Source: a virus
Taxonomy: Duplodnaviria; Caudoviricetes
Virus record (IMG/VR): IMGVR_UViG_3300013383_000002
Coordinates: 1-64,000 of that record
Strand: one strand, 5' to 3'
DNA: 64,000 nt
The position numbers and the translations under genes are program-made. The first letter of the stretch is position 1; each line of letters begins with the position of its first letter. The notes beneath the pieces are model-generated. The model was not told the DNA's origin and did no database searches. It saw only the letters and a program-made list of their open reading frames with translations. Of this stretch, positions 1,723 through 62,427 are shown one piece after another.

Positions 1723-2708
1723 TTCCTCAAATTCCTCGCCCTAAGCGTTCGTTTCTCTCAAAACGGTGCGCGCGATGCCAGGTAGAACAACCAGAAGAGG
1801 ATTTCGCTTTCACTCACAGCGAATTCTATCCCGACCACCATCTTCCACTTTGTAATTCATGCGTTACTTCGATGTTGCGCGAACACGACTTTGATTGGTG
1901 CTTTATTGATAAGTTGTGCCAATGGGCTGATATTCCATTTATTGTAAAAGAATGGGAGAGATTGCGCGAACTCAATTCTCCTGATAGCGTGTGGGCAGCT
2001 TATTCCAAAGTTTTTGCTTCGCAAGACTATGAGGGCCTTGGGTGGGACTCTTATTTCAAGCAATATCAAGAACTAAAGGCAGTCGGTTTAGTGGAAGAAG
2101 AGATTCCGCTTTTGAAGGAGAAGCATTTCGACGAGCTGCGCGCGCGGTGGGGTGCCAACTATGACGAAGATGCCCTAAATTACCTCGAAAACCTTTATCA
2201 AGGACTTCTAATGTCTCAAAACGTGGTCGGCGCACTTCAAATCGACCAAGCTCAAAAGCTTTGTAAGGTGTCCTATGAAATTGATAGTCGCATCCGCGCG
2301 GGAGATAAAGACGTCGATAAATTTATGGCGACTTATGATAAGCTGGTCAAAACAGCTGAGTTCACACCCAAAAATATAAAGAACGCGCACGACTTCGATA
2401 GCTTTGGTGAATTGGCACTTTGGCTCGAAAAACGCGGCAATCAGAACAAGTTTTATGATGGCGCGACTCGTGATGTTGTAGACGAAACAATCAAGAATAT
2501 TCAGGCATGGAATCAGCGCCTTTACGTCAACGAAAGCAGTCTTGGTGAAGAGATAACCGCGCGCCTCCAAGCTCTTAAAAACGTCCAAGAAAGCGAAAAT
2601 TTCTATGAGACAGAGCAAAAAGATTTCGACGCCGACATCTACGAAGCAGAAGTTTTCAAAGATGAAGACGAGGAAGATTTTGAGACAGAAGGGGAGATGG
2701 GCGTATGA
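1713..2708 (+). CDS. zinc-finger protein upstream of terL, candidate terminase small subunit
   Basis: CARC...CNSC, acidic C-terminus, ATGA overlap with terL; function inferred from position only. Confidence 0.5.
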   Translation: MPVIPQIPRPKRSFLSKRCARCQVEQPEEDFAFTHSEFYPDHHLPLCNSCVTSMLREHDFDWCFIDKLCQWADIPFIVKEWERLRELNSPDSVWAAYSKVFASQDYEGLGWDSYFKQYQELKAVGLVEEEIPLLKEKHFDELRARWGANYDEDALNYLENLYQGLLMSQNVVGALQIDQAQKLCKVSYEIDSRIRAGDKDVDKFMATYDKLVKTAEFTPKNIKNAHDFDSFGELALWLEKRGNQNKFYDGATRDVVDETIKNIQAWNQRLYVNESSLGEEITARLQALKNVQESENFYETEQKDFDADIYEAEVFKDEDEEDFETEGEMGV

Positions 2709-5235
2709 GTATTATCCAGTTGCGGCCGCCCACTTCGCCTTTTCTCCAAGATAACCGTATCTATCGAGATGGTGTTTTACTAGAAAAGGGCGTTGAAGTT
2801 ACTGAAGACTTTTTGATAAGAAATGAAAAGTTTTTTGCAGATTTGACACAAATCTATACCGTCTATCCCGACGTCTATTTGGACATAATTCGACCAGAAA
2901 ATAGTCAGTTTGATTTGTTCATGTATCAGCGTATTTTTCTTAGAAGTTTGATGCGCTATAACCAAGTCTACATTACAGCAACGCGCGCGGCCTCGAAATC
3001 GTTCCTTTCCGTTTTGGGAATGTTTTTACAATGCGTTTTCATTCCAGGACATAAGTGCTCACTCATTGCACCGGTCAAAACCCAAGGCGTAAAAATTTTG
3101 CGCCTCTTCTTTGTAAAAAGGAGATAAATCAGGCATCTAATTGCTGGGAAACCCTAAAAGCCCAAATGCCTTTTTTATAGGAGCAAAAGCAGAAACAAGT
3201 TTTGGGATAACCTACGGCAAAAGCCTAAGGGTATTTATAATGGGCAATCAGCAGCCAACTCTTTTTGAGAGGTTCAACGACTATCCTTCGGGAGTAAATT
3301 CTGAAACGGTGCCTTGCCTCGCGGCAAAAGATATAGTCTAATCTTATGCGAAAGCATAAGCTAATAAAATGAAAAATTTTCAAAGAAAAAATAGCCGAAA
3401 TTCTAAAGATATGGCCTCTTCTTGAAAAAGAACTCGAAGTTTTTATGGGCAAACCGCACATCAATTTATCAAAAGACGTAGGCGAAGCTTATTTCAAGAA
3501 TGGTTCATTATTCACCGTCGAAGGGGCAACAGATTCATCACGCGGCCTCCGACGTCACTCAATCTTTCTCGATGAGACACGTGACGCCGACGAAGACGCG
3601 GTTAGTGAAATCATCATCCCCCAACTAAACGTTTCGCGCCGCAACGCACTCGGCCTTGTAAACCCATATGAAGCCGTAAATCAGCAGATGATTAGTGGTA
3701 CTTCCGCAGGCACTAAATCATCCTATGCCTACGCATTACTTTGCGAGACGATGATACAGGCAATAATTGACCCCGCCCATGCTTTTGTAATGGGACTTGA
3801 TTATAGATTGCCGGCGATGCACGGCTTGGTAGACAAGGCTTTCGTCGAGCGACAAAAGTTCTCATCCTCCTACAATGAAGCAACTTTCGCAGCTGAATTT
3901 TTAGGAACTTGGATTGGCGGGAGTGATGAAGCGTGGTATGATTTTGAGAAACTTTCTAAGTATAGAAAGAAAAAAAATCCAGAGTGGTTTCAAAAGTATA
4001 AAGACGACCCGAATGTTTTCTACTTACTGTCGATAGATATAGGTAAAGGAATTTTGCCCCATTTTGTAGTAATATAAAATGTGTATCTTTCTAATTGCTG
4101 GGACACCTTCAGGGCAATCAGCAGCCAATCTACGGACGGTTCAACGACTATCTCGCAAGAGAGTAAAGGTAAGCGCCTCGAAATGGAAGATATCCTACTG
4201 GGATAATGATATAGTCTAATCTTTATGGGAACATAAAGCCCTATGGTATGAAATTAGCGACTTCATATAAATATAAATGAGATTACACGACAGCACAGTA
4301 GCAACTGTATTTCGGGTCAACAAAGTAAACGGCAAATACTATTCAACCGTTGTAAATATTTATGTCCTAGGACGTCAAGCGGAAACCAAAACTTTCTCTC
4401 AACAAGCGATTGATATCAAACTTTTGATTGAGAGATACAATCCGCGCGAAGTCCTTATAGACACAAATGGCTTAGCAACTTAGGTCATTCAAAATCCCTC
4501 TAATTGCTGGAAAGCCTTTCAAAGGTAATCAGCAGCGAAGTCGCGTTTGAGCGAAACGTTCAACGACCAACCGTGAGGTGTAGGAACAGTGTTCCGAAAC
4601 GGGGGATACTTTTAGTAAAGATATGGTCTTCTCTATATAGTGATATATAGCAGTTCATAAGAGAACGCATACGCTTACGAAACGTATGGAAAATAAAAGT
4701 AGGTCTTGGTATTGCCGACGAAATGATAAAAACCCATATCGACGGCCGCGGGCGAGAGCTTCCCGCTTACGGCTTCTTCAATAATGACGATTATAAAAAA
4801 ATCCAACCGCGTAATTGTATCCCAATTCTCTATTCAATGAAAGCCAATGGCCCTCTAAAGTCAAAAATCAATGGTAACGCTTATGCTCGTCTAAACAGTG
4901 GCTTAGTTCGCTTCTTAATATCAGAGCAAGAGGCCCGCTCTTCCCTTCTCGCGACAAAGAAAGGGCAAAAGATGAGTCTAAAAGAGCGCACAGAGCGACT
5001 TCTGCCTCATGAGAACACCACAAAGCTTTTTACGGAAATGGCTAACCTTCGAGCTAAGCAGACGGGCAATGATATCGTCCTTGAGCCGATAAACTCTCGG
5101 TTCCCCGACGATAAGTATTACTCTTTTGCTTATGGGCTTTGGCGCATCAAAGAAATAGAGGAAGAAGAACAAAAACGCCAAAGAAAACGAGGCGTTGGAA
5201 AACGTAAACTCGTATTTTTTACAGGAGGAACATAA
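2705..5235 (+). CDS. terL: terminase large subunit, spliced: join(2705..3090,3372..4044,4280..4472,4700..5235), 595 aa
   Basis: Walker A-like ATRAASKS, Walker B RGLRRHSIFLDE, nuclease motifs IDIG|R-HD, IDTNGLG and PDDKYYS; exons total 1788 nt in frame. Confidence 0.92.
3091..3371 (+). mobile_element. group I intron 1 in terL (ORF-less, 281 nt)
   Basis: P1 exon GGCGU pairs with IGS GCGCC (U.G); core AATTGCTGGGAA...AATCAGCAGC, P7 GACTA/TAGTC; ends in G; join gives GVKIFKEK. Confidence 0.92.
4045..4279 (+). mobile_element. group I intron 2 in terL (ORF-less, 235 nt)
   Basis: Same core motifs and P7 GACTA/TAGTC; exon ends in U, intron ends in G; join gives IDIG|RLHD; P1 is short (GGU/GCC). Confidence 0.88.
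4473..4699 (+). mobile_element. group I intron 3 in terL (ORF-less, 227 nt)
   Basis: P1 AAUGGCU/GGUCAUU, P10 ACUUA/UAGGU, covariant P7 GACCA/TGGTC; join gives DTNGLGLGIADEM. Confidence 0.92.
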
Positions 5236-6753: not shown

Positions 6754-8101
6754 TTTCGAGTTTCCTGTCTGTGTTTATGGGAAATTGGAAAAGTATAATG
6801 AAGTGCTTTCCAAAGGGCGATGCCGTATTTTTTATAAATACGGCAATCGCAACGGCACTTATATAACAGACGAATTCTCAGAGAAGCTTCTAGCAAGTAT
6901 TGCTTACGCGCCAGTAAAAGGAATTTATGAATATGACGATTTTTCTGACCATGGTGCGCGTCGATCAGAAGGAAGGATTTATGGTATAGTACCAGAAAAC
7001 CCCAATCTTCAGTGGGAAGAACATAAAGATGAAGATGGGGTTACGCGCACCTATGCTTGCGTTGATGTCTTAATTTTTACGGCTCTTTATAAAGAAGCAA
7101 ATGATATTATTGGTAAAGCGCAATCAATGGAATTATATGAGCCTTCTCTTCAATACCATAGAGAAATAATTCAAGGCCAACAGTACATTGTTTTTGATGA
7201 AGGATGTTTCTTAGGTCTTCAAGTTTTAGGCGACACGGTTGAGCCATGTTTTGAAGGGGCGGCCTTTTTCCAATTGCGCGAGAACATTGAAGAAGTTGTA
7301 AAGAGAATTCAAGAAATTGAAACAACATACTCTAAAGGAGGACAAAAAGAAATGCCTCAAATTAATTTCAAGCTTTCTGATAGACAGAAGTTTGATGCTA
7401 TTTGGACTCTACTAAATCCAAATTATACCGAAGAAGGTAATTGGACTGTTAATTATAGTATTTGCGACGTTTTTGATGACTATGCTTTAGCTTACAACTA
7501 TGAGTTCGAACAGTATGAACGAATTTATTATAGTAAAAATGATGAAACTGATAGTTTGTCTCTTGGAGAAAGAGTTCGCGTTTACGTGATTGATGTAACC
7601 GAAAAAGAGAAGTCTACCCTTGACACCCTGCGCGATCTCAATGGTGGAACTTATGAGCTAGTGAATGAAAATCTTGAACACGCCCAAGAGAATGCTGAAA
7701 AAATTTCTGGTTTTGAACTCAAAATTGACGAGTTGAATTCTATCGTAGCGACTTTGGATACAGAGAAGAATGAAGCTCAGTCTAATTTTGAACTTGAACA
7801 CAAAAAGGCTGAGGAGCTTTCTGGTGAAGTTGAGTCTTTGAAGCAATATAAGCTTGCTATTGAGACAGAGCAGAAGAACGCTGTTTTTGCCGAATATGAA
7901 GATAAGCTTTCTGAGGATGTTATTAATCATTATCGGGAAAAGATGGTCGAATATTCTGCTACTGACCTTGATAAGGAATTAGCTTACGAACTAAAAAAGA
8001 CAAATTTCTCTTTTTATGAAAAGAAAGACAATAGTTACTTACGAAAAGATGTCCAAAAGACTGGTATCGACGAGATTCTTGCTCGTTATGTAAGGAAATA
8101 A
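6746..8101 (+). CDS. prohead protease/scaffold-like protein
   Basis: Lies between portal and capsid genes; QSMEL and VEPCFE motifs, then an acidic coiled-coil C-terminus. Confidence 0.6.
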   Translation: MNNFEFPVCVYGKLEKYNEVLSKGRCRIFYKYGNRNGTYITDEFSEKLLASIAYAPVKGIYEYDDFSDHGARRSEGRIYGIVPENPNLQWEEHKDEDGVTRTYACVDVLIFTALYKEANDIIGKAQSMELYEPSLQYHREIIQGQQYIVFDEGCFLGLQVLGDTVEPCFEGAAFFQLRENIEEVVKRIQEIETTYSKGGQKEMPQINFKLSDRQKFDAIWTLLNPNYTEEGNWTVNYSICDVFDDYALAYNYEFEQYERIYYSKNDETDSLSLGERVRVYVIDVTEKEKSTLDTLRDLNGGTYELVNENLEHAQENAEKISGFELKIDELNSIVATLDTEKNEAQSNFELEHKKAEELSGEVESLKQYKLAIETEQKNAVFAEYEDKLSEDVINHYREKMVEYSATDLDKELAYELKKTNFSFYEKKDNSYLRKDVQKTGIDEILARYVRK

Positions 8102-8116
8102 TTTGGAGGATAAAAA

Positions 8117-12957: not shown

Positions 12958-14469
12958 ATGGCTGATGTACTAAGCCGCTATGGTATCAAGGAAGTTTGTG
13001 ACTTCACTCTTTATGATATCAATGACGATGGTTCTGTTGGCGCTCCTGCGCTATATCTGGATTAACAGAGTAGTCCAGAATAAATCGCGTGAATTGCTGG
13101 AAAACCCTAAAAACCAGAGAGGTATTGAACTTGAAACAAAGTGAGAATGGGCAATCAGCAGCCAAGCTTGAATGGCGGATAATTGCTGAAGATACAAATT
13201 ATATGGTTTCAAATACTGGATTAGTAAAACGAATTCAAACCAATCATATTTTATCTTTTGGAAATAAAAAAAGGTATTATACAGTAGCCTTACATAGTAA
13301 TGGCACTCGTAAAGATAGATATGTTCATAGACTTGTAGCTTTAGCCTTTCTTCCGAATCCAAATAATTTACCATATGTAAATCATCTTGACCATAATATT
13401 CATAACAATAACGTAGAAAATTTAGAATGGTGTACAAGTTCTGAAAATGCTCGACATTCATATAAAGATGGGAGACGAGCAATTGAATATCAAACAACAA
13501 GAAAAGATGTACAAAAAAAGATGGTTGATAGAGTAAAAAAACCTGTTGTTCAATATGATTTAGATATGAATTATATTACCTCTTTTGAAAGTGCAGCAGA
13601 AGCTGCTCGGCAAACAAATGTAAATGACAGAGGTATATCTTTTGTTTGTAACGGAAAAAGAAAAACAGCTGGAGGATTTATTTGGAGATTTCAAGAAGGT
13701 TCAACGACTAAGTGCTCAGAAAATCCAACTGAGACAGCGCGCGACTCTGAAACAAGAGATGATATAGTCTAATCTCAAACGAAAGTTTGAGCTTCACAAT
13801 GAAGGTTTATAAGAATTGGCTTATAAATAAATATCGATGACTCTAAAAATTTCAACCGTCGAGCAAACAGCTGATAGCACTTCTGCTCGTGGCGGCAAGG
13901 GTAATAGCGAATTGGTTATGTGGGATTTTGGTCGTGAAATCACCCTAAACCTTCAGGATGCTCTTTTCTCTGCTAAATCTATGGCAATCATGTTTGGTGA
14001 TGCTGATGGTGCTTCTGCTCCTGCTAGTGGTTCTGTGCTTCGTACTTGGAACCTAACTAAGCTTGGTACTCTTAGCGCTGCTCCTACTCAGCTAGATCTA
14101 GGCCTTGGTAAGAAGCATACTGTTTCTACTAACGCTGTTTATTATACGGCTACTGGCTCTTCTAGCTCTGAATGGAGTGCTGACGCTGTGTATATCACTG
14201 ACAAGGTTACTACCAAAGACCACACTGAAATTGTTATTAATGCTGAGACGTTCCCCGGAACTTATGCATGTATTGGCGACACTTACTGCCGTAGTGAAGA
14301 TACTGGTAACGATAGCTTCTTCCAAATTCAAATTCCAAAGGCAAAGATGCTTTCTGACGTTACTCTAACAATGGAAGCTGAGGGCGACCCCACTGTCTTT
14401 GATATGCAGATGAAGGTTCTCCGTCCAAAGAACGGCGAAATGATGAAGCTAGTCAAGTACGATATCTAA
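12958..14469 (+). CDS. major tail (tube) protein, spliced: join(12958..13062,13840..14469), 244 aa
   Basis: 35-codon exon 1 (MADVLSRYGIKEV...LYLD) with GGAGG RBS is absent from the ORF track; joins to TLKISTVEQ...ARGGKGN; strong codon bias; terminator after. Confidence 0.8.
13063..13839 (+). mobile_element. group I intron in tail tube gene (777 nt) carrying an HNH homing endonuclease
   Basis: P1 CUGGAU/GUCCAG, P10 AGAGU/ACUCU, P7 GACTA/TAGTC, P3 TCGCGT/GCGCGA, terminal G. Confidence 0.92.
13089..13772 (+). CDS. intron-encoded HNH homing endonuclease (NUMOD4-HNH-NUMOD1 type); likely start TTG 13131
   Basis: YMVSNTG, VHRLVALAF, VNHLD...NNNVENLEW, FESAAEAAR...TAGGFIW. Confidence 0.88.
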   Translation: MNCWKTLKTREVLNLKQSENGQSAAKLEWRIIAEDTNYMVSNTGLVKRIQTNHILSFGNKKRYYTVALHSNGTRKDRYVHRLVALAFLPNPNNLPYVNHLDHNIHNNNVENLEWCTSSENARHSYKDGRRAIEYQTTRKDVQKKMVDRVKKPVVQYDLDMNYITSFESAAEAARQTNVNDRGISFVCNGKRKTAGGFIWRFQEGSTTKCSENPTETARDSETRDDIV

Positions 14470-14486: not shown

Positions 14487-14522
14487 GGGCGGTGGAGGTT
14501 GGCCTCCATCGCTCTTTCTTTT
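14487..14522 (+). terminator. intrinsic terminator
   Basis: GGGCGGTGGAGG/CCTCCATCGCTC stem plus T-rich tail. Confidence 0.7.
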
Positions 14523-14532
14523 GGAGGATAAA

Positions 14533-15352: not shown

Positions 15353-15367
15353 ATGCAGGAGGGAGAA

Positions 15368-33777: not shown

Positions 33778-33778
33778 T

Positions 33779-33807
33779 TTGAAATTCTTTTGTTTTTTTG
33801 ATATAAT
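33779..33807 (+). promoter_or_regulatory. sigma-A-type promoter with extended -10
   Basis: TTGAAA, 17 bp, TG-n-TATAAT. Confidence 0.75.
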
Positions 33808-33827
33808 AAAATAAAGGAGTTGATAGA

Positions 33828-48600: not shown

Positions 48601-50277
48601 GCCACCTAGACAGTTATGGACAATAACATTTTCACATTTAAAGGAGTGTGTAGTATTATTTAGACAATAAACTATTTCATTCATCGTAATCTTTGTCTTT
48701 GACTTTATTCGTACTTTTCGATACCAAGTATTATCAATGAAAATATAGTCAGTCTGTTTTATAGTTTTAGCTTGTGAAAAAATTTGACATACTTCTTGAT
48801 GTGAATAAGCCTGTAATTTTTTTATTACACCCAAAATACTATTACTACCCTCCACATACCAAGCATTTTGATGATGAACCCCATCTTTGCCAGTACGTAC
48901 CTTAGCTAGAGAAATCCCTGAGGTGATATGTAATTGATTTAGAATTTCATAAATATCATAAGATAATTGTTTGGAAATAGAGGCGCTAACAAATTCTCCG
49001 CAAGCATATTTTACAAGATTACCAGGTTTTCTAATTCGAAAATATCCATCAGCCAAGAAATATCCAAAAACTAATTCATAATCAAGTTCTTCAGAAATTC
49101 TAAGGCGTTCTGGAACTTTTTTTGTATCAGCTTTTACATCTCCGAATAAATAGAAAAATAAATCAATAAATTCTCTACTTGAACATGAAATATCTACTCG
49201 ATGATTATCTGGTCGTGCAGATACAGACCATTCAATACCTAATTGCTGACTTGCTGGTAAAATAAAAGAATTGTAATAAATAGGAAATTCTTTTTCATTG
49301 AAAGTAAACTTTATATTTGGATTCTTTTTTAGTGTGATGCATCCATCTCCTAAAAATAAACCGAAAAGTCGCATCAACTCAGGTGTTATTTCTATTCTAT
49401 CGGGTAAAATATATTTCTTATAAGATAATTCCGAAGAAGACCAAGAGTGTAAAAATTCAGTTTTTTCTATAAAAGGGCTACTTTTATAGTCGTAAGAACA
49501 GGGCAGTAAGCACATATGCTTAGTCCCACCCTTTTTAGTAATAAGTTCTTCAGCTGAGACCCATCGAGGAGTTTTCTTATTATTACTAATGACTAAAAAT
49601 TGATGATTACCAGTACAATAGATAGGTGAAGGATTACCACCTAAAATAATTTCGTAGCCATCGCCAATATAATTTCTACTAGTCGGCTCAATTACTTTTT
49701 CCCATTCTCCATAACGATTTATAACAAGGTCGCCTGACTGTATATCTTCAATATTTTTCCAGCCCTGCCTAGTTTCAATTTGAGTACCAGCTCGAAAACA
49801 CGCTGTCGAACCAATAACATGGCCGGGATTAGCGCCAATAATTTCAAATAAATCGTTATAATAGGTTGGAACGCGTCTCATGCCCCGCGCCATATAACTA
49901 CGAAGCCATGCACGAGTAGAAAGTTCTCTAATTTGTTGATGTCCAATTGCGTCTTTTGCCAGGAGAATAAAGTGATAATACTTATCTTGACCCGCTTTAT
50001 AGTTAGACGCGTTGAGGCCATTACGGCAGAGATAGATTTCGTTTCCTAAAATAAGTTTGAAGTCTGGATTCTTTTCTTTTATCTTTTGGTAATATTTTTC
50101 CGCGCGGACTGCGCCAGAGACGGTTTCATGGTCAGTAATGGCTACTACTTGGTGCCCTAGTTCAATCGCATAATTGATTAAGTCTTCGGTCTTGATGATA
50201 CAGTCACGGAGACGCTCATTTGACCAGTCAAGGTGATTATGCAGAGAACCAGGGTAACTTAGTTTTCGTTCGTCCAT
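42696..50277 (-). CDS. dnaE: DNA polymerase III alpha subunit (family C), spliced: complement(join(42696..44175,45275..50277)); 2160-aa precursor with two inteins
   Basis: PHP motifs LHNH, AITDH, TTDSHY; GPGRGSGAG; DCDTD; GIHAGG; KIDML; GYSF|CRAH restored by splicing. Confidence 0.93.
44176..45274 (-). mobile_element. group I intron in dnaE (1099 nt)
   Basis: P1 AUACUCGUU/GACGAGUAU, P10 ACAA/UUGU, AATTGCGGGG...AATCCGCAGC, P7 GACTA/TAGTC, terminal G. Confidence 0.92.
44290..45064 (-). pseudogene. frameshifted LAGLIDADG homing endonuclease inside the dnaE intron
   Basis: RBS and ATG at 45064; YLIGLMLTDG and IIRGIIDGDG motifs lie in different frames; several indels; 3' end approximate. Confidence 0.8.
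46285..47589 (-). mobile_element. intein 2 in DnaE (435 aa) with LAGLIDADG domain
   Basis: A|CLKPGT...THNH...LIGIYLAEG...GCYYGDG...VSHN|C. Confidence 0.93.
48613..49800 (-). mobile_element. intein 1 in the DnaE PHP domain (396 aa) with LAGLIDADG domain
   Basis: STA|CFRAGT...TGNH...LFGLFLGDG...GYFLADG...IVHN|CLGG. Confidence 0.93.
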
Positions 50278-50299: not shown

Positions 50300-50587
50300 C
50301 TAATTATATGACAAATCTTTATCTGGAAATACGTTCTTTATTCTAGCTCTATCTTCATGCTCAGCTATATCAAAAAATCCCCAACCTTTATGAAGGCTCA
50401 TTACCCCAATAATTTCCCATGGAAACTCACTAATCAAATAATAATATTCATCCATTTGAATTCTATCGTAAGTTCCTTCGTCCTCAAATAGAATATATTG
50501 TTTAATATCCTCTAAGGTATGAAGTGTGCCAGGAAGTGAAGCTACTAGTTCTTTTTTGAAGCCGTCTATTTTATAAATTCCTATCAT
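50300..50587 (-). CDS. hypothetical protein
   Basis: GGAGG RBS before ATG 50587, coupled to the MTase stop. Confidence 0.6.
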   Translation of the reverse strand: MIGIYKIDGFKKELVASLPGTLHTLEDIKQYILFEDEGTYDRIQMDEYYYLISEFPWEIIGVMSLHKGWGFFDIAEHEDRARIKNVFPDKDLSYN

Positions 50588-51378
50588 TATTTCCCCTCCC
50601 ATTGCTCTTTTAGCCATTTGCGTAATCTCCATGCTGGCAAATTTGGAGAAGCAACACATTGAAGAAGTTCTTTATAATCACATTCCTTTAGCTTTTCTTG
50701 TAACCAATCTTTTATATCACTATCGCACTTGAAGACTACTTCATTCGGGCATGTTTCATCTTTATTGAGTAAACGAATTGTCCCCCAGGCCGCAACACGA
50801 AAATCCCAAGGATAATTCAATATATCATCCGGATGTTTATATTTTCCAGTCCGAAAAATATGCCTGCACTCTAAAATGCCAGGAATATCATAATTTTGCT
50901 TATGGCCATTTTTACAATAATGATAAATGTTTAAACAGCAATGGACTCTTCTCCCGCTGTAAGGCAGTGTTCCTAAATCTTCGCTATATAGTAACTCTGT
51001 ATCCTTCATTGTTCGATTTTGATTTAGTTGACTGATTGGTTGGATAAGAGAAATATATGGCGAATGAGTTAATGAAACTTTTACGAACTGAACAGAAAGC
51101 TTGTTCGCCCTGCCAAAAGGAGGGTTGCCAATTACTAAAGATTTGTCCATGTAGGGGAGCCTTACTTCTCGATAATCAGCCTGAACAATATTCGGCGCTT
51201 CTGGAAGAATATCATAGGCTAATGTTTCTTCCGGTAAATATTTCAAATATGCTCCCGCCCCCGCAGAAGGTTCAATAATTCTAACCCAATCAGTGCCAAG
51301 AATTTCAAAAGTTTTTTCAACACAGTATTTAGCTATACTGTCTTCAGTATAATATTTATCATTTGCTATTTTTCCCAT
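50587..51378 (-). CDS. amino (N6-adenine) DNA methyltransferase
   Basis: KYYT, IIEPSAGAG (SAM binding), then NPPF (catalytic): gamma-class order. Confidence 0.88.
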   Translation of the reverse strand: MGKIANDKYYTEDSIAKYCVEKTFEILGTDWVRIIEPSAGAGAYLKYLPEETLAYDILPEAPNIVQADYREVRLPYMDKSLVIGNPPFGRANKLSVQFVKVSLTHSPYISLIQPISQLNQNRTMKDTELLYSEDLGTLPYSGRRVHCCLNIYHYCKNGHKQNYDIPGILECRHIFRTGKYKHPDDILNYPWDFRVAAWGTIRLLNKDETCPNEVVFKCDSDIKDWLQEKLKECDYKELLQCVASPNLPAWRLRKWLKEQWEGK

Positions 51379-51379
51379 A

Positions 51380-51895
51380 TCATACCTCTAAAAATTTATT
51401 CAAATCAGAAAAAGTCATAAAACGGTAATGAGAGAAGGATAGTCTATTCTTCTTCGTCGAACCCGAAATAGTATAGCATCCTTCTTCGGTCCGAGAGTGT
51501 TGCTTACTTTTAGAAAATAATTGTTCATTTATAATATCTCCGCTAGGGATAAAAAATATTTCTTCTCCACCCTTTTCAGTGTCATAATTGACAAAAAGAA
51601 AATACTCACACTCATAAGGGTGGCATTGGTTATAAGTAATTGTTTTTAATGGAAGTCGCGCGGATTTTACTTCTACTCTGCCATATTTTTCAGAAAACAT
51701 ATCGTGGCCAGCAGAATTATCTTTTCTCAGGGCTGGAACTTTACTAAGAATATATGGCTCGCTCCATTCTTCCCCAAAAGCTTTATTAGATAAACTTTTT
51801 AAATTTCCATAAGGATTTAATTCAGAAATTCTTTTTTCACACTCAGTAATAATTTGTCTAAGCTCTGAAATAGAAGTAATATTTGATAAATCCAT
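51380..51895 (-). CDS. PD-(D/E)xK nuclease, candidate restriction endonuclease
   Basis: FGE...GHD...VEVKS motif; adjacent to and co-oriented with the MTase. Confidence 0.6.
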   Translation of the reverse strand: MDLSNITSISELRQIITECEKRISELNPYGNLKSLSNKAFGEEWSEPYILSKVPALRKDNSAGHDMFSEKYGRVEVKSARLPLKTITYNQCHPYECEYFLFVNYDTEKGGEEIFFIPSGDIINEQLFSKSKQHSRTEEGCYTISGSTKKNRLSFSHYRFMTFSDLNKFLEV

Positions 51896-51927
51896 AAGAA
51901 AAAAGTCCTTTCCAATTTCTTATCTAT

Positions 51928-51956
51928 ATTATATCACAACTTCTTCTAAAAAGCAA
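51928..51956 (-). promoter_or_regulatory. sigma-A-type promoter for the nuclease-MTase cassette
   Basis: TTGCTT, 17 bp, TG-n-TATAAT on the - strand. Confidence 0.7.
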
Positions 51957-54619
51957 ATCTGCTATCTTCAATTTCCAAATCAGTTATGAAAATTTGTGGC
52001 GTTATTTTTCCACCCCACTCGTTGAGATTTGGTTTGCCAACCAAAGTAATATCCATATCTCCGGGAAAATTCTTCAATTCCTCGATCAAATCTTTTGCGC
52101 GGAATTTTACATAAGTAATTCCATTCTTCTCAATTCGTAAAGTATCTAAATTCTTTCCAATAATCTTTACGTCACTTTGTGACACATTCAAATTAGTAAT
52201 TACCATAACTGGCTCTTCATTTTGTGGGCCATAAACCTGCTCAATCGAACAAAGCTCTTCAATTGCTTCCCCGATTTTAGGGTCGTTCGCGCGCATTACC
52301 AAGTCTACATCATAATAATTTTCGCCAAAATCAATTTTTGAAAGTTCTCTATTGGCGATTTCATGGAACTTTGGTAAATTTTTGTCGAGAATGCTAATAC
52401 CAAAAGCGCCATCATGCGGTTATCCTCTATTTCTAAAGGGCCTGACTATTTTTTACATAGAATTTCTATGAACATCCATTTCAAGCAACGTATCAATAGT
52501 TGCTTTACTCTCCGAAGTGGAGATAGTCGATACAGGTTTCTTGACTTAGAATTTTTTTATTATATTCTTTATTTGCTCTAATTGGATATTTGAGCCGTTC
52601 GTCAAAATGATTGTTCCCTTGGTTTATCATTTTAGCAGAAGACCTGTTCCATCCAACTTTTGCTCCAATATGATTTAGAGGAATGTCAGAACTACAGCAA
52701 AGCCATTGTATATACAAAGCTCGATATTCATCTAATTCCTTTTCTGAAGGACGAAGTGGATAAATCAATTCTTCTTTTCTCCAAGAGCCGCCCTCTTTGA
52801 TATGGCGGAAGATATTTGAGGTAATTCCCCTCGTCTTTATAATCGTTTTAGCAGGAATTCTCCAATCTAGCATATCTTGAATAACCTTATCAGCAATTTC
52901 TTGCGTAATAGCACTATTTGGATTATTTCCTGCTCTCATAATTGAAGGTTCTTCTCCACCATCTTGAACGTTATATCCATTTGGTACTTTTGAGTTATAT
53001 AGAATAATATATTCTCGTTCTTTTTCATTATAATTTTCAAACCAGCCCAAAATTTCAAAAGTAAAATTTTCTGCTCCATATTTTCTCAAAGCTCTATGAA
53101 TAGGACAATTTTTCTCATTATGACCATTGATATGCTGGCCCCATCTGACTTTTGGATTTTTTGCTTGCCCAATATAAATTTTATGATTGATTTTATTTTC
53201 TATTTTATAAATAGCTTTTATCATTTTATTCACCTCCCTATATCTAAGAATAATTCTAAGTCAAGTTTCCCACGAGATTACCACCACCATTACGTGCTGT
53301 GGCTTCCTCGTTAGCCATTCTAAAACAACCCCGCTGATGAAACGGAAAAGATGTTACGGGCCATATTATCGACCCAACGTATATTCAAATAGACTTGTTT
53401 GATTTAGATAATTTTTGAATGAAGATAATTCCGTGTTTCCTGGTGCTCGCGCACTACCTCGAATGTATCCTTCTTTATTGAGCCGTGCGACTATGGTCGG
53501 GCGCTTATACTTCGAGGCCAAGGACATCGAAATCAATCCATTTAACTCTGCCGGAAATACATCATCATCCTCTAACCGAATAAAAAGAACTTGGTTTGAT
53601 AATAGATCTTTCTTGAAAATTTTTGCTTCAAGTCTTTCAACCATTTGTTCCTTCATCTTATCTTGGTGAGACTTTGCGTTTACACATTCACGAACGCTTT
53701 CCACGCACAGCCGTTCTTTTGTTCCTTTCGCGCCGCGCTTGTGGCAATCAACCATCATTTCTGGCATTACAAAAGACAAATATAAACGTTCTTTCTCATC
53801 CATTGAACCGACTCTAATCATGGCATTGATTAGCGGAACAATATAAAAAGCGACTGTAATTGGAGTAATCTTTCCGCCCATTGAATAGTCTTGCTTTTCA
53901 ACTAAAGTCCTAAACATTTTATTTTTGATGTTCTTGAAACCGGTTTGAACGAGATATTGGTTTTCGACTTCTAGCATTGACATCATATCTGCGACGATGC
54001 CCAAAGCACATAAATCAATATATTCCCAAGCAAAGTCTTTCAAGAAGAAATTATCAAGCGCGCGACACAGTTGCCAAGTGACGCCAGCTCCGCACAAATC
54101 TTTATTTTTATAATTAGGCGAAGTTTGATTATTTACTAGAATCATATTTGGAGGAATGATGGTATTCTCTTCTTTGATGTGATGGTCCGCGCACAACACA
54201 GGACAACTAAAATTGGCAATATATTCGCCATCATTCGTAGCACTATCCGGCGCGATAATCATACTCCAATCTTTATCTTCCAGTTGTTCCATCAAATCAG
54301 AAAAACCGTGTTGTTTTCCAGAGTGGATAAAATATTGAATCTCTTTTTCTGGATTTAGTCTTTTCAAATATTGATAGATAATGGCAGATGAAGTGGCACC
54401 ATCGACGTCACAGTCTGCAATGAGCGCGTAGGGTCGTGCGTCGTTGATTGTTAGTTCTATTGCTTTTACAGCTCGTTCTATGTTCTCTAAATCGCGCCAA
54501 CTTTGAAGGCAGCTTTCATCTGGGCGACAAAATTCTTGGACGTCTTGAACACCTCGCGCGCGAAGTAGATTTTCTCCGAAATTTTCTTTTATTTCTGGAT
54601 TTCTTAGTCGATATTTCAT
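51946..54619 (-). CDS. recJ: RecJ-like ssDNA exonuclease, spliced: complement(join(51946..52416,53372..54619)), 572 aa
   Basis: DCDVDG, DHH, GIVADMM, P.INA..R, GSAR; DHHA1 motif G|HDGAFG restored by splicing. Confidence 0.92.
52417..53371 (-). mobile_element. group I intron in recJ (955 nt) with GIY-YIG endonuclease
   Basis: P1 UGGGU/GCCCG, P10 AUG/CAU, P7 GACTA/TAGTC, terminal G. Confidence 0.9.
52505..53233 (-). CDS. intron-encoded GIY-YIG homing endonuclease
   Basis: AIYKIEN...YIGQ...R...H...E...GYN. Confidence 0.9.
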   Translation of the reverse strand: MNKMIKAIYKIENKINHKIYIGQAKNPKVRWGQHINGHNEKNCPIHRALRKYGAENFTFEILGWFENYNEKEREYIILYNSKVPNGYNVQDGGEEPSIMRAGNNPNSAITQEIADKVIQDMLDWRIPAKTIIKTRGITSNIFRHIKEGGSWRKEELIYPLRPSEKELDEYRALYIQWLCCSSDIPLNHIGAKVGWNRSSAKMINQGNNHFDERLKYPIRANKEYNKKILSQETCIDYLHFGE

Positions 54620-57832: not shown

Positions 57833-57835
57833 ATT

Positions 57836-57864: not shown

Positions 57865-57877
57865 AACGTATATCTAT

Positions 57878-60800
57878 TTAGTTCATGCTATCGCGTAGGT
57901 CACGAAGGTCGAGAAGGGCCAAGTATAGGAGGTCTACTTGGTCTTCGGTAACTTCTGAAAGTTTTATCTTTCGGCCAAAAATCATTTCAACCTTCTTAGA
58001 CATCGTGCGAACGATATCAGCTTTTTCGTCATCCGTTTGTGCTTTATTGACAAGCGAAGTCCAGATTTCACGAGCTTCACTCATAGTGGCGTTGAAGTCA
58101 TGCTTTTCATTAGTGATAATTGGAGCATTGTCAACAACTCGCGCACCATTTTGTTCTTCCATGTCAATTGCCTTGGCGAGAGCGTCCTCAAATTCATGAA
58201 AACCAAAAGGAATACGTGGAGCAAGATATTTACAGTTTGTTATCATAAAGGCTTTTTATCCTCTATTTCTTATACTTCATTTCGTATAAGCTCAGCATAT
58301 CTTTTTATCCTTATGGGATATTTGGACTCGTGGGAGTTTTATTCATGAACAAACAAGACTCGAATTTCTCTTTTTTTCTTTTTAGAAAAAGGATTTTTTC
58401 ATTATAAAAACCATAATATAATTTTACACTATTTGTTTTATTGAAAGTGAAATAGTAAAGTGGAACAGTTGACCTTTTATCCCATCTTGAATGAATGATC
58501 GTTGGAATAATACCTAATTGCTCTTCCAAAATAGACATAATAATAGAAAGATTTTCTTTGGAAACACTTACTAAATTAGTTCTTATCGTATGTCCATCAT
58601 TCGGTTTATAGACACACCCATTTCCATCAAAATATCCATGAATAAAATCTAAATAATATTCTTTTGGAAGATTCAATGGAAATTTCATTTCATAGGTTTT
58701 TTTATTTGTAATTCCATAATTAGCAAGAAAACTGACATATTTTTTTGAAGAAAAAGTCAAACTAACTGAAGGGTGGCCGTCCTTCAAGTAATGATAAATT
58801 GGCCCATCAAACTCTATATACTTTTTGATTTTTTCTAAAACTTCTTCATCTTTTTCTGCCAAACCAATACTTATTCGATGTAAAGTTTTTCCTTCTGGAG
58901 ATTTACAAATATAACCATCTGCCGCGATGAACCCCATCAGCCAAGCTGTATCGTGGTTGATTTGAATGATTTTATCATCATTTATTTTATACTTTCTATT
59001 ATCAGTATTTTGTCGAGCTTCTTCGTGAGTTCTTATTCTAATGTTGTTTTCTTTCAAGATTTTTTTTAGACAAGCGTCACTTGTTCTATACTTTTTAGAG
59101 CATTTTGATAAAGATAGCCCGTTTGAGTAATCTTTGATAAAATCCTCAATAACTCCTTCTATTTCAACACGAGGTCTTTTTTTATGAGTTTTTTTTAATT
59201 CAAAACCGTTTTCTCTAAAAATTCGTCTAGTTAGGTCATAGCCATAACCTTCAAGCTTGCCAGCTTCGATAAGAGATAAATCTTTTTCATAGTAATTTGT
59301 TTTTATTCTTTGAATTACCTCTTCTGGCACCACTTTTTTATTTGCCATGTTATTTTCTCCTATGCGTTGCCCCTGACCAGTATTTTACCACTAGCCTTCA
59401 GGTCTGATTCCCATCTCAGGGTTCCAGCTTTTTTCCAAAATTTTATTGATAAATTACTTTACCATAGCTCTATTTCTAAAGCGGCTACCTGCTGTAACAG
59501 TGGGCGTTGAGCGCGTTAGAATCCAGCGTTCACTTTCCCCTTTTTCGTTCCAAGATTGAGTAATAACACCGATGATGTCAACACAATTTGTTATCGTAAA
59601 GTTTTTTATCTTTACTTCTTACTCTTGAATTTGAGTAAGTTCAGCATATCTTTTTTCCTCTACGTTAGAGGAATAGAGTCTCGTGGATTTTATATCATAA
59701 AAGGTCTTCATTATTTGATATTTTCTTTCCATATAAATGGAATTAGGAACATACAGAATTTCAAAAAGTTTTAGTATAGTTTCTTTTTTATAGACTTGCA
59801 TTGAATAAAAATGGTCGCCTTGACTCAAAGTTTTTGTGCTAGTAGACAGGGAAGTAATAATACCATACTTATTCAAAAGAACTTGACGCATCCATTCAAT
59901 AACTTCTTTTCTGGCACCACAAATATACCAATTATATTGATATTTTTTATAATTCGTCCAGATACAACCGTCGCCATCAAAGTATCCTCGGATATAAGAA
60001 ATAAAATATCGTTCGTCAAGAAAAGTAGGCGGGACCAAAGTAAAAGTTTTATGAGGAATTATTCCATAATGAGCTAAGTCTTGCTTGATAGTATAGCTAC
60101 AAACTCTAAGACGACTATACTCATGGCCTGAATTATTAGTATAGTGTTCTATCGGTCCTTCATAACTTAGTTCATCTTTTATTTTATATAATATTTCTTC
60201 ATCAGCTCGTTGGATGTCTATTGAGAAATGGTTTGAGCTTTTTGAAACGCCTCCATCAGATGCTAAAAAACCAAGAATGTAAGCCATATTGTGGGATTGA
60301 ACTTTGAAATAATCGTCATTGACATTATGTGCTCGGCATTCTTTCATGGCCTCTTGTCGATTACGAACTTTTACTCCCCATTTTTTCAGATATCTTTGAA
60401 TTGTTATTCCTGCGATTCCAACGTCTCGGCCGATAGCGTTGACCCCTCTTTTCAATACTGCATAATTATATACTATAAACTCTTTTTGTTCATCTGTGAA
60501 TGAAATAGGTTTACCCACGCTGGGTTCCTCCTTTATGTTTATCAATCTATGCGTTGCGCGTGTTAGAGCTTTTGCACCCTAACTTCCGCTCTGATTCCCA
60601 TCTCAGGGTTCCAGCTTTTTACTCTAATTTAGATATTTGTTACCAAATAAATGCCCCATTGAGGCCATTGACAATTTTTAGACAACGGTTATTGAGGTCG
60701 GGCTTCGCACTAATAAGCTTGCCCTCCTCGTCATAAGTCTCTTTCAAGTGACACGTCATGAGAAGGCCATATCTCATCATAGTAATTTTGCGGAGGGAAT

Positions 60801-62427
60801 TTTCAAATTCTTTCGACAGTTGAGCGTAACCTCCACCGAAGGGCACATCTCCGATCTTAGATACTCCATTCTGCGCGCAGATAAACTGCTCACAAAGGTC
60901 ATAAAGTCAATGTGTTATCGTAAAGGTTTTTTATCCTTTACTTCTTATACTTCATTTCGTATAAGTTCAGCATATCTTTTTTACCTCATCAAAGGTAATT
61001 CAGGCTCTTGGATAATTATTTCATAAGAGATAAGAATTTTTTATATTTTCTTTCCATATATAGGGAATCTTTTACATATAAAATATTGAAAATTTGTCTA
61101 GCTCTGTCTCCGTAATAAGTAATTTCATACCAGTCTCTATTATCGGACAATTTCCCTTTTACTGTTCTTAGAACCGTTTGTATATTATACTGGGTACTTA
61201 AAAAATCTCTCATCCATTGTATGATGTCTTTAGAAGCTCCTCCAATAAAAAAGCTAGGAGTATAATTATTTAAAACAATACATCCATCTCCATCAAAATA
61301 CCCTCTAATATAAGAAATACAATACTCAGGAAGAAGAAGCTCTGGCGGTTTTAATATAAAAGTTTTATTTGGAACAATTCCGTAGTGAGCTAAATCTTTT
61401 TTTATAGTAGAACTCCAAAAAGAAAGCTTCGCTATTTCTCTTTCTTTTTCTCCTTCTCCTACACAAGAATACACTTTTACTGGACGAGTATTTTTTAGTT
61501 CTCTATTTATATCTTCAAGAATTTTTTTATCATCAGCTTTTAACTGAATAAAGATACCGTTTTCTTTAGAAGAGACACTCCCGTCCGAAGCTAATAGCCC
61601 TAGTATATATGCCATATTATGAGATTGTGTTTTAAAATAATTATCATCAATAGTATACTTCCGTAAATTATCTTTTGATTCTACATAATTACGGATATAA
61701 ACACCATTTTCTTGAAGAATAGTTTTTACCGCTCTTTGACTAAGGCTAAAAGGCTTCCCACTAGGAACAAGTCCTTTTTTTAAGACTGTATAATTATAAA
61801 TTACTTTTTCTTGTATTTCTTTTGAAACATCTTTTTTATTTTGATGTTTAGCTTCTCTAATTTCAACATTATGAGATTTTAATAAATTACGGACAGTTTG
61901 TCTGTTACAATTATACTCTTTGGCTAAACTCATTAGAGAGTATTTTTCATTTACATATTTTTTATATATATCTTCCCAAAATTCTTCTAGTTTACTCAAC
62001 CGAGTCAACCTCCTATGTTTATATTATCTATGCGTTGCGCGTGTTAGAATTTTTACATTCTAACTTCCGCTCTGATTCCCATCTCAGGGTTCCAGCTTTT
62101 TACTGAAATAAAACTAATTTATTACTAAATTAGAGGACGCTTTTCCATCCCAATAGTATCAATGCAAATTGTCTGATATAGTTCTTTTGCTTGCGGTTTT
62201 TCAAGCTGTCGAAGAACAAGTTTCCACTCGCTCCAAGTGGTAATTGGCTGAACCATCGCATTGCTTTGAGCGTTGGTTCCAATCTCGGTCGCTATGATGA
62301 GAGCTTTGTCGCTTTGACAACAAAACTCCGTTTTACCAATCTTAGGCGCGCCTGCGAGAAGCAGATATTTTCCACGTAGATTTCTCGAGATTACATTCGG
62401 CTGTAAAGAAAGAATATCAATGCCCAT
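57878..62427 (-). CDS. AAA_24/Sak4-like P-loop ATPase (recombination), spliced: complement(join(57878..58232,59479..59583,60662..60907,62147..62427)), 328 aa
   Basis: GAPKIGKT, E.G, CIDTI, FGGGY, H.K, L|VDIIG and AGSRF|KYL all restored; exons total 987 nt in frame. Confidence 0.85.
58233..59478 (-). mobile_element. group I intron C in the AAA ATPase gene (1246 nt)
   Basis: P1 GCUU/GAGC; AAGCTGGAACCCTGAGATGGGAATCAG; P7 GCATA/TATGC; terminal G. Confidence 0.88.
58311..59348 (-). CDS. intron-encoded double-motif LAGLIDADG endonuclease
   Basis: WLMGFIAADG and FIHGYFDGNG; N-terminal HTH-like repeats. Confidence 0.9.
   Translation of the reverse strand: MANKKVVPEEVIQRIKTNYYEKDLSLIEAGKLEGYGYDLTRRIFRENGFELKKTHKKRPRVEIEGVIEDFIKDYSNGLSLSKCSKKYRTSDACLKKILKENNIRIRTHEEARQNTDNRKYKINDDKIIQINHDTAWLMGFIAADGYICKSPEGKTLHRISIGLAEKDEEVLEKIKKYIEFDGPIYHYLKDGHPSVSLTFSSKKYVSFLANYGITNKKTYEMKFPLNLPKEYYLDFIHGYFDGNGCVYKPNDGHTIRTNLVSVSKENLSIIMSILEEQLGIIPTIIHSRWDKRSTVPLYYFTFNKTNSVKLYYGFYNEKILFLKRKKEKFESCLFMNKTPTSPNIP
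59584..60661 (-). mobile_element. group I intron B in the AAA ATPase gene (1078 nt)
   Basis: P1 GCCU/GGGC, P10 CAAUG/UGUUG; same core; terminal G. Confidence 0.88.
59619..60545 (-). CDS. intron-encoded double-motif LAGLIDADG endonuclease
   Basis: YILGFLASDG and YIRGYFDGDG. Confidence 0.9.
   Translation of the reverse strand: MINIKEEPSVGKPISFTDEQKEFIVYNYAVLKRGVNAIGRDVGIAGITIQRYLKKWGVKVRNRQEAMKECRAHNVNDDYFKVQSHNMAYILGFLASDGGVSKSSNHFSIDIQRADEEILYKIKDELSYEGPIEHYTNNSGHEYSRLRVCSYTIKQDLAHYGIIPHKTFTLVPPTFLDERYFISYIRGYFDGDGCIWTNYKKYQYNWYICGARKEVIEWMRQVLLNKYGIITSLSTSTKTLSQGDHFYSMQVYKKETILKLFEILYVPNSIYMERKYQIMKTFYDIKSTRLYSSNVEEKRYAELTQIQE
60908..62146 (-). mobile_element. group I intron A in the AAA ATPase gene (1239 nt)
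   Basis: P1 GGGAU/GUCCU; same core; terminal G; join gives DTIGILYDLCE. Confidence 0.88.
61016..62008 (-). CDS. intron-encoded double-motif LAGLIDADG endonuclease
   Basis: YILGLLASDG and YIRGYFDGDG. Confidence 0.9.
   Translation of the reverse strand: MTRLSKLEEFWEDIYKKYVNEKYSLMSLAKEYNCNRQTVRNLLKSHNVEIREAKHQNKKDVSKEIQEKVIYNYTVLKKGLVPSGKPFSLSQRAVKTILQENGVYIRNYVESKDNLRKYTIDDNYFKTQSHNMAYILGLLASDGSVSSKENGIFIQLKADDKKILEDINRELKNTRPVKVYSCVGEGEKEREIAKLSFWSSTIKKDLAHYGIVPNKTFILKPPELLLPEYCISYIRGYFDGDGCIVLNNYTPSFFIGGASKDIIQWMRDFLSTQYNIQTVLRTVKGKLSDNRDWYEITYYGDRARQIFNILYVKDSLYMERKYKKFLSLMK

Follow-up and report, generated by a model that had tools for sequence, protein, structure and literature searches.

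Probable group I introns and inteins in seven core genes of an SPbeta/E3-like siphophage

Results

Seven interrupted genes in the first 64 kb of a siphophage genome

The stretch of DNA analysed here (the window, 64,000 nucleotides) makes up the first 64 kb of one 121,436-bp contig, IMG/VR record IMGVR_UViG_3300013383_000002, from a phage in which seven core genes appear to be interrupted by self-splicing elements. On the plus strand, genes for a sigma factor, the large terminase (terL), the portal and head proteins are followed by two YomU-type tail tube paralogues, the tape measure protein (TMP), Dit and tail proteins. The minus strand carries RuvC, dUTPase, a ThyX-fold gene, dCMP deaminase, ribonucleotide reductase (RNR), DnaE, RecJ, primase, DnaB helicase and Sak4; the replication module follows the yorG-yorL order of SPbeta, and the RNR gene is uninterrupted. 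Protein matches are to large siphophages around Bacillus SPbeta, Geobacillus virus E3, Enterococcus phage H1, Lactococcus 949 and the gut phage phAss-1, and by these matches the phage is classed as an SPbeta/Geobacillus-E3-like siphophage. Megablast with 25 kb of the window gave no match among GenBank phages, none of which is close at the DNA level, and Pfam searches with the terL, portal and capsid pieces gave nothing useful.

Twelve predicted group I introns and two predicted inteins were located (Table 1): three introns in terL, one in the tube gene, two in the TMP gene, one in the ThyX-fold gene, one plus both inteins in dnaE, one in recJ and three in the Sak4-like AAA_24 ATPase gene. Together they account for 8.93 kb of intron and 2.49 kb of intein, which matches the 11 kb or so given by an initial annotation of this DNA; its count of elements and its assignment of them to seven core genes likewise hold, on the strength of empty sites in relatives, alignments to homologues and open spliced frames. 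All of the introns lie within the first 62 kb, about one per 10 kb of the 121-kb genome, and a search of positions 64-121 kb with the Rfam group I model RF00028 gave no match at E≤0.1. Seven introns hold an endonuclease open reading frame (ORF) of the HNH, GIY-YIG or LAGLIDADG type, one of them decayed, and five have no ORF. Both inteins contain endonuclease domains.

Table 1. Interrupted genes and their predicted introns and inteins. Positions are those of the window; U(-1), uracil before the 5′ splice site; omega G, terminal G of the intron; classes are explained in the text.
Feature	Position	Strand	Length and class	Exons, splice sites and RNA features	Protein features	Empty or absent in
terL (YonF-like large terminase)	2705-5235	+		exons 2705-3090, 3372-4044, 4280-4472, 4700-5235		
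terL intron 1	3091-3371	+	281 nt, A1	U(-1), omega G; P1 AGGCGU/GCGCCU; RF00028 83.2 bits	no ORF	6 relatives
terL intron 2	4045-4279	+	235 nt, A1	U(-1), omega G; RF00028 91.9 bits	no ORF	7 relatives
terL intron 3	4473-4699	+	227 nt, A1	U(-1), omega G; P1 AAUGGCU/GGUCAUU; RF00028 80.1 bits	no ORF	6 relatives
Tail tube gene	12958-14469	+		exons 12958-13062, 13840-14469	YomU_Tube, PF27173; PHROG 2729	
Tube intron	13063-13839	+	777 nt, A1	P1 UCUGGAU/GUCCAGA		17 loci, zero overlap
TMP gene	15353-23841	+		exons 15353-17260, 17557-17584, 17921-23841	PHROG TMP matches	
TMP intron 1	17261-17556	+	296 nt, A2	U(-1), omega G; P1 AAGAUAU/GUAUCUU; RF00028 65.8 bits	no ORF	L079, L080, L081, L084
TMP intron 2	17585-17920	+	336 nt, A2	C(-1)-G at 5′ splice site; omega G; RF00028 36.8 bits, E 9e-6	no ORF	
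ThyX-fold gene	36692-38465	-		exon 1 38465 to ~38211; exon 2 ~37051 to 36692	~204 aa spliced	
ThyX-like intron	37052-38210	-	~1159 nt, C	P7.1 and P7.2	HNH ORF 37159-38013, PHROG 3377, E 1e-18	at least 4 relatives
dnaE (YorL-like Pol III alpha)	42696-50277	-		exons 50277 to 45275, 44175 to 42696	Pfam PHP, DNA_pol3_alpha, finger, HHH_6	
DnaE intein 1 (predicted)	48613-49800	-	396 aa		Cys1...His-Asn/Cys+1; LAGLIDADG domain; Pfam Hint_2, LAGLIDADG_3, Intein_splicing	19 related loci
DnaE intein 2 (predicted)	46285-47589	-	435 aa		Cys1...His-Asn/Cys+1; LAGLIDADG-type endonuclease; Pfam Intein_splicing, Hom_end_hint	17 related loci
dnaE intron	44176-45274	-	1099 nt, A2	P, Q, R, S all present; P1 UACUCGUU/GACGAGUA; RF00028 weak, 15.5 bits (half-match)	LAGLIDADG ORF 44347-45066 (-), frameshifted	L035, L050, L058
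recJ (YorK-like DHH exonuclease)	51946-54619	-		exons 54619 to 53372, 52416 to 51946	Pfam DHH	
recJ intron	52417-53371	-	955 nt, C (IA-like)	U(-1), omega G; P1 UGGGU/GCCCG; P7.1 and P7.2	GIY-YIG ORF 52505-53233 (Pfam)	14 loci
Sak4-like AAA_24 ATPase gene (YorG-like)	57878-62427	-		exons 62427 to 62147, 60907 to 60662, 59583 to 59479, 58232 to 57878	Pfam AAA_24 on exon 1	
Sak4 intron 1	60908-62146	-	1239 nt, B	U(-1), omega G	LAGLIDADG ORF 61016-62008 (Pfam), in P7.1 loop	11 loci
Sak4 intron 2	59584-60661	-	1078 nt, B	U(-1), omega G; P1 AAUG(G)CCU/GGGGCAUU	LAGLIDADG ORF 59619-60545 (Pfam)	6 loci, no overlap
Sak4 intron 3	58233-59478	-	1246 nt, B	U(-1), omega G	LAGLIDADG ORF 58311-59348 (Pfam)	6 loci

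Junctions and coding frames

Junctions were placed by means of empty-site alleles in relatives, drawn from 90 related loci that we collected in four IMG/VR scans and number here with the prefix L. The closest of these are 86-97% identical to the window in the flanking proteins, and most come from a single metagenome dataset. This fixed 11 of the 12 intron junctions to the base. Ten of the 11 have U(-1) before the 5′ splice site and all 11 introns end in omega G. A P7 pair is visible in all 12 introns, as had been claimed for them; the companion claim, that each also has a P1 formed by its internal guide sequence (IGS), is borne out by eye in 11, no clear P1 being seen in the ThyX-like intron. 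At 10 junctions P1 has a U.G pair at the splice site.

Removal of the elements leaves open frames with one terminal stop each, specifying products of 595 aa for TerL, 244 aa for the tube protein, 2618 aa for TMP, 572 aa for RecJ and 328 aa for Sak4, and a DnaE of 2160 aa before protein splicing. As the initial annotation had it, excision restores both frame and conserved motifs, and the joined products align to intron-less homologues with no gaps; this comparison, one of the checks then suggested, together with the relatives supports every junction except that of the ThyX-like gene. If the transcripts were left unspliced, an in-frame stop would be met 0-29 codons past the 5′ splice site in all ten introns checked, and the downstream exons looked at (recJ exon 2, Sak4 exons 2 and 3) have no start codons, so that full-length TerL, tube protein, TMP, DnaE, RecJ, Sak4 and ThyX-like protein would need RNA or protein splicing. 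The earlier proposal that packaging, tail assembly and replication all depend on splicing is consistent with these frames.

Packaging and tail genes

The terL genes of E3 and H1 align by tblastn to four window pieces in different frames, and an intron-less terL allele in L019 gives the exact junctions. Other relatives have intermediate arrangements: L018 has intron 3 only, and L014 has introns 1 and 3. The P7 of intron 3, GACCA/UGGUC, is a compensatory variant. We also observed that two protein families of 'unknown function', phrog_15503 and phrog_24618, match terL pieces at 2705-3127, 3445-4077 and 4723-5235. These reference families were evidently built from intron-split genes, an instance of the fragmentation by standard gene callers that had been anticipated for the interrupted genes.

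The tail tube label given earlier is confirmed by the YomU_Tube match; in addition, 81-94% of the members of look-alike clusters in the ESM Atlas (score 0.94-0.97) carry PF27173. An intron-less tube ORF (L024:17726-18460) reads ALYLD/TLKIS across the junction. The tube intron carries an HNH homing endonuclease ORF within 13089-13772, between elements Q and R (HNH PHROG 59, E 4e-46). Directly after the interrupted tube gene and before the TMP gene, a second YomU-type tube paralogue (PHROG 2729; 14521-15312, plus strand) occupies the usual place of the tail chaperones.

The tube and TMP proteins of H1 align across the gaps in the window's tube and TMP genes without indels. TMP introns 1 and 2 are paralogues with 67% identity, separated by a micro-exon of 28 nt (17557-17584) that is the 3′ exon of one ribozyme and the 5′ exon of the next. 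In L081 and L084, which lack both introns, the TMP reads AAGSRQQSRF, and the junction of intron 2 is unique from L081. P1 of intron 2 comprises 9 bp (GCAGUAGAC/GUCCACUGC), and its exon and IGS strands covary in L080, L077/L083 and L075, giving four variants in which the C-G pair at the splice site is kept. A conserved Gln codon begins with this C(-1), and U in its place would make a stop, which may have forced the pair. A 39-nt exon (17557-17595), with the junction moved 11 bases downstream to satisfy U(-1) and omega G, was considered and rejected, because the AAGSRQQSRF of L081 and L084 fits the 28-nt exon.

Replication genes

SPbeta YorL aligns by tblastn to the window in four blocks, of which three share one frame, with the two inteins between them, and one lies in another frame beyond the intron (the GR1 DnaE was also used). 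It runs uninterrupted across the insertion site of intein 1. Both DnaE inserts would be class 1 inteins by sequence criteria, and their removal would leave a protein of 1329 aa. Two fragments of the LAGLIDADG ORF in the dnaE intron, in different frames, each match LAGLIDADG_3; the gene appears to be an endonuclease in decay within an otherwise intact-looking ribozyme.

YorK aligns in two blocks around the GIY-YIG gene (tblastn), and the recJ junction, LG/HDGAFG, aligns with EGHPNAAG. For the Sak4-like gene, tblastn with YorG and the H1 Sak4 gives four aligned blocks, with a LAGLIDADG gene in each of the three intervals, and the intron-less alleles of L037, L044 and L056 read straight through.

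Between dnaE and recJ lies a block of small genes (50310-51950, minus strand) that includes a methyltransferase-like ORF (50587-51378). It is missing from six relatives, and parts of it are missing from others; it is a variable intergenic island, not an intron.

The ThyX-fold gene and its intron

A 204-aa homologue in phages XP41-N3 and Fnu1 aligns to the gene labelled thyX in the initial annotation in two blocks, around an HNH gene, and intron-less alleles are present in L057-L065 (including L061:12939-13550). The label is correct as to fold. An AlphaFold (AF2) model of an intron-less homologue, with a pLDDT of 96, has only ThyX structures as its top Foldseek matches in the PDB (TM 0.6-0.71, probability 1.0), and 6 of 49 family members match Pfam Thy1. 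At the level of sequence the label fits less well. The window gene has no significant Pfam match of its own, the intron-less homologue scores below the Thy1 threshold (12.7 bits, E 0.11, cut-off 24.8), a sequence-profile search of the PDB with the ThyX-fold protein found no ThyX, and the GR1 ThyX has no tblastn match in the window. The family, which numbers 2420 cluster representatives (E≤1e-3), has the motif RY[HR]FxDxVSSQSTMH, not the ThyX signature RHRxxSxxxxSxRY, and the intron sits in this motif. Judged by the model, the gene belongs to a distant ThyX-fold family with a divergent motif, one that may not be a classical thymidylate synthase.

By eye, the core of the ThyX-like intron has the same layout as that of the recJ intron, with R GUAACGACUA, S GAGAUAGUCU, P3 CUGUGUG/CGCACAG, P8 and a P9 with a GAAA loop. 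Several junctions can be considered. Collinearity with FVSSQSTMH favours a join after C38211 or after U38210, the latter requiring a terminal A, and analogy with an E3 sequence described below (UGUC/GGCG) suggests a join after C38214, which leaves the product one residue short. Omega G holds for two of these three candidates. Relatives of the intron's HNH gene were sought in IMG/VR and none was found.

The TMP gene of Geobacillus virus E3 is annotated with a 310-nt gap between coding sequences GP42 and GP43 (KP144388.1, ~33538-33847; L005:18539-18848). The gap has no ORF and shares the core of the ThyX-like intron, including R, P7.1, P7.2, P3′, P8, S, P9 with its GAAA loop and a terminal G. 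These features suggest a group I intron that the annotation missed. Neither the E3 nor the H1 locus gave an RF00028 match at gathering score.

Ribozyme cores and structural classes

Four introns exceed the RF00028 gathering score of 50 bits, with matches at 3081-3360, 4035-4238, 4402-4650 and 17192-17548, and three more have matches below it: TMP intron 2 (36.8 bits; 17587-17914), the tube intron, where half-matches (24.9 and 33.8 bits) flank the ORF (13090-13231, 13587-13791), and the dnaE intron (15.5 bits). A search with covariance models, suggested with the initial annotation as a check, thus bears out a third of the introns at threshold.

By structure the introns fall into four classes. 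The three terL introns and the tube intron form class A1, and the two TMP introns and the dnaE intron class A2; by sequence and by pattern matches to R and S, the class A introns have P, Q, R and S elements. Class B comprises the three Sak4 introns, which are IA-like with a P7.1, and class C the recJ and ThyX-like introns, IA-like with both P7.1 and P7.2. The conserved group I core, P3-P8 with a P3/P7 pseudoknot and P4-P6, was found across classes A, B and C. The combination of P7.1 and P7.2 is a mark of subgroup IA, the usual phage type. A survey of Bastillevirinae introns found mostly IA2 and IA3 matches, with frequent one-sided detection (PMC11878797).

The cores of the three Sak4 introns are 74-83% identical, and ORF-less relatives of class B occur in L030, L032, L033 and L061. 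RNAalifold applied to the four ORF-less copies gave P1, P2, P3/P3′, P4, P5, P6, P7.1, P8, P9 and P9.1, with nine compensatory pairs. P7 is an invariant GCAUA/UAUGC in pseudoknot with P3, and P7.1 is a helix between P7 and P3′, whose loop holds the Sak4 LAGLIDADG genes. The three window copies have P3 helices UUCAG/CUGAA, UAGAGU/ACUCUA and UUUGGA/UCCAAA, P7.1 helices GAUAA/UUAUC, GAUU/AAUC and GGAG/CUCC, and three distinct complementary versions of P8. In class C, the recJ intron has a P7 of GACUAU/AUAGUC with P7.1, P7.2, P3′, P8 and a P9 with a GAAA loop; P4-P6 is assigned only loosely. Among class C relatives, P3, P7.1, P7.2, P8 and P9 change on both strands in a compensatory manner, and a copy in another gene (L053) has a different guide sequence, which matches its own exon. 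RNAduplex scans for P1 were not discriminating, positive controls included.

Filled and empty sites among relatives

In a blastn search with the window, all 14 sites (12 intron, 2 intein) proved to be exactly empty in 1-19 related loci, with a junction ambiguity of 0-9 nt. Twelve contigs were compared for their content of the window's 14 elements: they carry between none and six, in differing combinations. Conversely, at least 15 further insertion sites that are filled in relatives are empty in the window, including terL near 3530, tube codon 9, TMP exon 1, RNR near 40580, dnaE near 43890, recJ, the helicase gene and the Sak4 P-loop. Some of these extra insertions are RF00028-positive, and several are clear group I introns; examples of the insertions are L014:17755-18981, L083:6395-6720 and 6810-7093, L033:8226-8477 and L061:7255-7514. 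For the clade as a whole (loci L013-L102), at least 25 insertion sites are segregating, and the endonuclease genes range from intact to lost. Such turnover among close relatives would be typical of selfish homing elements.

Related contigs that come mostly from one dataset, carry different subsets and never reach beyond 6 of 14 might also be expected if the assembler had collapsed a polymorphic population and followed, at every site, the variant with the insertion, in which case no single virion would contain all 14 elements. We regard such inflation as unlikely. The window is part of one 121-kb contig, its flanking exon sequences are collinear without breaks, and the relatives' own insertions at other sites indicate that high loads are normal in the clade; we saw no sign of a chimeric join.

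Outside the interrupted region, the genome downstream of the window (81.3-85.2 kb; L010:17361-18815, L011:471-1197) contains a tRNA cluster, a ROOL RNA (273.8 bits) and drum RNAs.

Discussion

Group I introns and inteins as probable selfish elements

We conclude that this phage very probably represents an SPbeta/E3-like lineage that has been heavily colonised by selfish self-splicing elements. Precise empty sites, combined with RF00028 scores of 66-92 bits for four introns, argue that the interruptions are not chance. That the inserts are group I introns and inteins is, in our judgement, highly likely, splicing itself being deduced from sequence, and their presence or absence among relatives together with their internal endonuclease genes marks them as putative mobile (homing) introns and inteins. 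Group II introns were considered as well and ruled out by the lack of reverse-transcriptase ORFs, the group I cores and the group I-type endonucleases.

Several observations weigh against this conclusion. The three Sak4 introns, the recJ intron (also when searched as a short minus-strand segment) and the ThyX-like intron have no RF00028 match at E≤10, and these five were assigned by our comparison of their structures. No convincing P1 was seen in the ThyX-like intron, whose 5′ junction can be placed only to within 4 nt, and the P1 of terL intron 2 looks weak by eye. The U.G rule does not hold for TMP intron 2; when C-G replaces the conserved U.G in the Tetrahymena ribozyme, P1 undocking rises ~80-fold (PMC1891724). 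Finally, if the contig derives from a polymorphic metagenome, the linkage of 14 elements on one molecule is putative. As to the RF00028 negatives, the model also misses ORF-less class B and C introns of relatives, among them the class B copy in L033 (L033:8226-8477), and its silence is for this reason not evidence against membership.

The five introns that RF00028 misses and the unidentifiable P1 of the ThyX-like intron, whose junction requires C(-1), an omega A or the loss of one residue from the most conserved motif, leave room for the view that some interruptions are not functional introns, so that the gene concerned is dead or its pieces are translated separately; the ThyX-like gene would be the likeliest case. 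This seems to us very unlikely. No stop or frameshift disrupts the exon frames, the downstream exons that were inspected have no start codons, some exons are only 28-105 nt long, and compensatory changes preserve pairing in the ribozyme cores, implying selection at the RNA level. A related candidate, in which free-standing endonucleases, a known cause of genes in pieces, would have split the genes into separately translated parts, was rejected because start codons are missing from the downstream exons inspected, some exons are very short and ribozyme pairing is conserved.

For elements of this kind, the following course of events can be proposed, with splicing and homing taken from what is established for group I introns and inteins. 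In each folded intron the guide sequence would pair with the last bases of the upstream exon to form P1, and two guanosine-initiated transesterifications would then excise the intron and join the exons; the two inteins would be excised at the protein level. The HNH, GIY-YIG and LAGLIDADG genes, in seven introns (one decayed) and both inteins, would cut intron-less alleles during co-infection, allowing the element to be copied in, and homing of this sort would maintain filled and empty sites side by side in the population. The occurrence of paralogous introns in the same gene (three in Sak4, two in TMP, three in terL) points to spread to nearby new sites. The dependence of the phage on splicing for its packaging, tail and replication proteins would then be a by-product of invasion and not a designed control.

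The initial annotation had raised the opposite possibility, that splicing acts as a post-transcriptional gate on virion production. Under such a regime, excision that is conditional on host state, GTP or translation would time or limit the supply of packaging, tail and replication proteins. Seven essential genes of the early and late modules would indeed be inexpressible without splicing, the C-G splice-site pair and the 28-nt micro-exon could in principle make individual steps slow or skippable, and a sensor role for phage introns appears in the literature as an unproven hypothesis (PMC11878797). We nevertheless consider regulation highly improbable. For each of the 14 elements there is a relative, 86-97% identical in the flanking proteins, that lacks it, which argues that none is needed for the life cycle; the homing endonucleases are at different stages of decay, as in the classic selfish cycle; and no regulatory sequence feature, or other sign of regulated splicing in the sequence, was found.

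Invasion by selfish elements therefore remains our reading of this genome, and as such it is a dense example of a known phenomenon, since phages rich in introns and dependent on splicing have been described before. What sets it apart is the higher density, about one intron per 10 kb with all of them in ~60 kb, and the unusual choice of targets, namely the tube, TMP, RecJ and Sak4 genes. We would go further only tentatively: it is conceivable, if doubtful, that this clade has the densest self-splicing load of any bacterial virus (about one element per 9 kb, 9% of the genome, at least 25 sites segregating) and, at its shared 28-nt micro-exon, a natural lineage of introns with a C-G splice site. 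If true, it would provide a natural system for intron invasion, site switching and splicing without a U.G wobble.

There are consequences for annotation, RNA biology and evolution. Gene calling breaks seven core genes of this phage and its relatives into fragments, and the E3 TMP was deposited as two genes around its apparent unannotated intron. A single Rfam model misses 5 of the 12 introns here, which implies that Rfam-reliant surveys undercount phage introns; a survey using Rfam only would report 4-7 of the 12. Near-identical genomes that differ at 25 or more filled or empty sites offer a rare view, at the population level, of how such elements home, lose their endonucleases and reach new sites. 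The intron with a C-G splice site and a covarying P1 is a small but testable oddity.

Comparison with known systems

Bacillus phage SPbeta, which has group I introns and an intein in its ribonucleotide reductase genes bnrdE and bnrdF, belongs to the same broad group as the window phage and has the same module order of Sak4, helicase, primase, RecJ and DnaE. The interruptions differ in location: in the window RNR is uninterrupted, and the homologues of yorG, yorK, yorL, terL, tube and TMP are interrupted instead. In the annotations, yorG, yorK and yorL of SPbeta and the terL and TMP genes of Enterococcus phage H1 each appear as one gene without interruption; the split TMP of E3 is the exception.

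The three introns of T4, in td, nrdB and sunY, are of subgroup IA2 and lie in nucleotide-metabolism genes, with U.G at every 5′ splice site. Their IA architecture includes P7.1 and P7.2, an endonuclease ORF loops out from the core, and related phages differ in whether they carry the introns. These features are shared with the window. Staphylococcus phage Twort, the subject of work by Landthaler and Shub in 1999, reportedly carries several group I introns with IA-type cores, three of them in one gene and closely related within it, and these are said to have been shown to self-splice. Twort has fewer introns than the window phage, which adds two predicted inteins and apparently interrupted structural tail genes. 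The Twortvirinae are reviewed in PMC11878797.

Among the Bastillevirinae, 45 introns have been counted in 37 genes, with up to ~6 per genome (PMC11878797), and in Bacillus phage Moonbeam terL and the polymerase gene each hold two (PMC4299906). These systems share with the window mostly IA-type cores with HNH, GIY-YIG or LAGLIDADG ORFs, frameshifted intron ORFs, and a ribozyme of which one side is often missed by covariance models (PMC11878797, PMC4299906). The Bastillevirinae introns are confined to four gene families (polymerase, terL, thymidylate synthase and RNR), and introns in tube, TMP, RecJ or Sak4 genes are not reported there (PMC11878797, PMC4299906).

A further close parallel is provided by the Jug (jumbo gut) phages of Bacteroides and Phocaeicola. 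With a mean of 18.5 group I introns per genome, they have a terL split into two to three pieces, and metatranscriptomes prove that splicing occurs (PMC12880540, Sci Adv 2026). The statement in the initial annotation that most phages carry none or only a few such introns holds for cultured phages but is dated in light of that average (PMC12880540). Like the window phage, Jug phages combine many introns with inteins and with HNH, GIY-YIG and LAGLIDADG genes, and have interruptions in essential genes that include terL and DNA polymerase (PMC12880540). Their genomes, however, measure 360-402 kb, with about one intron per 20 kb and introns of ~206 nt on average (PMC12880540), whereas the window phage has 12 predicted introns in 121 kb, seven of them with endonuclease ORFs, includes the tube and tape measure genes among its targets, and belongs to an unrelated, SPbeta-like lineage.

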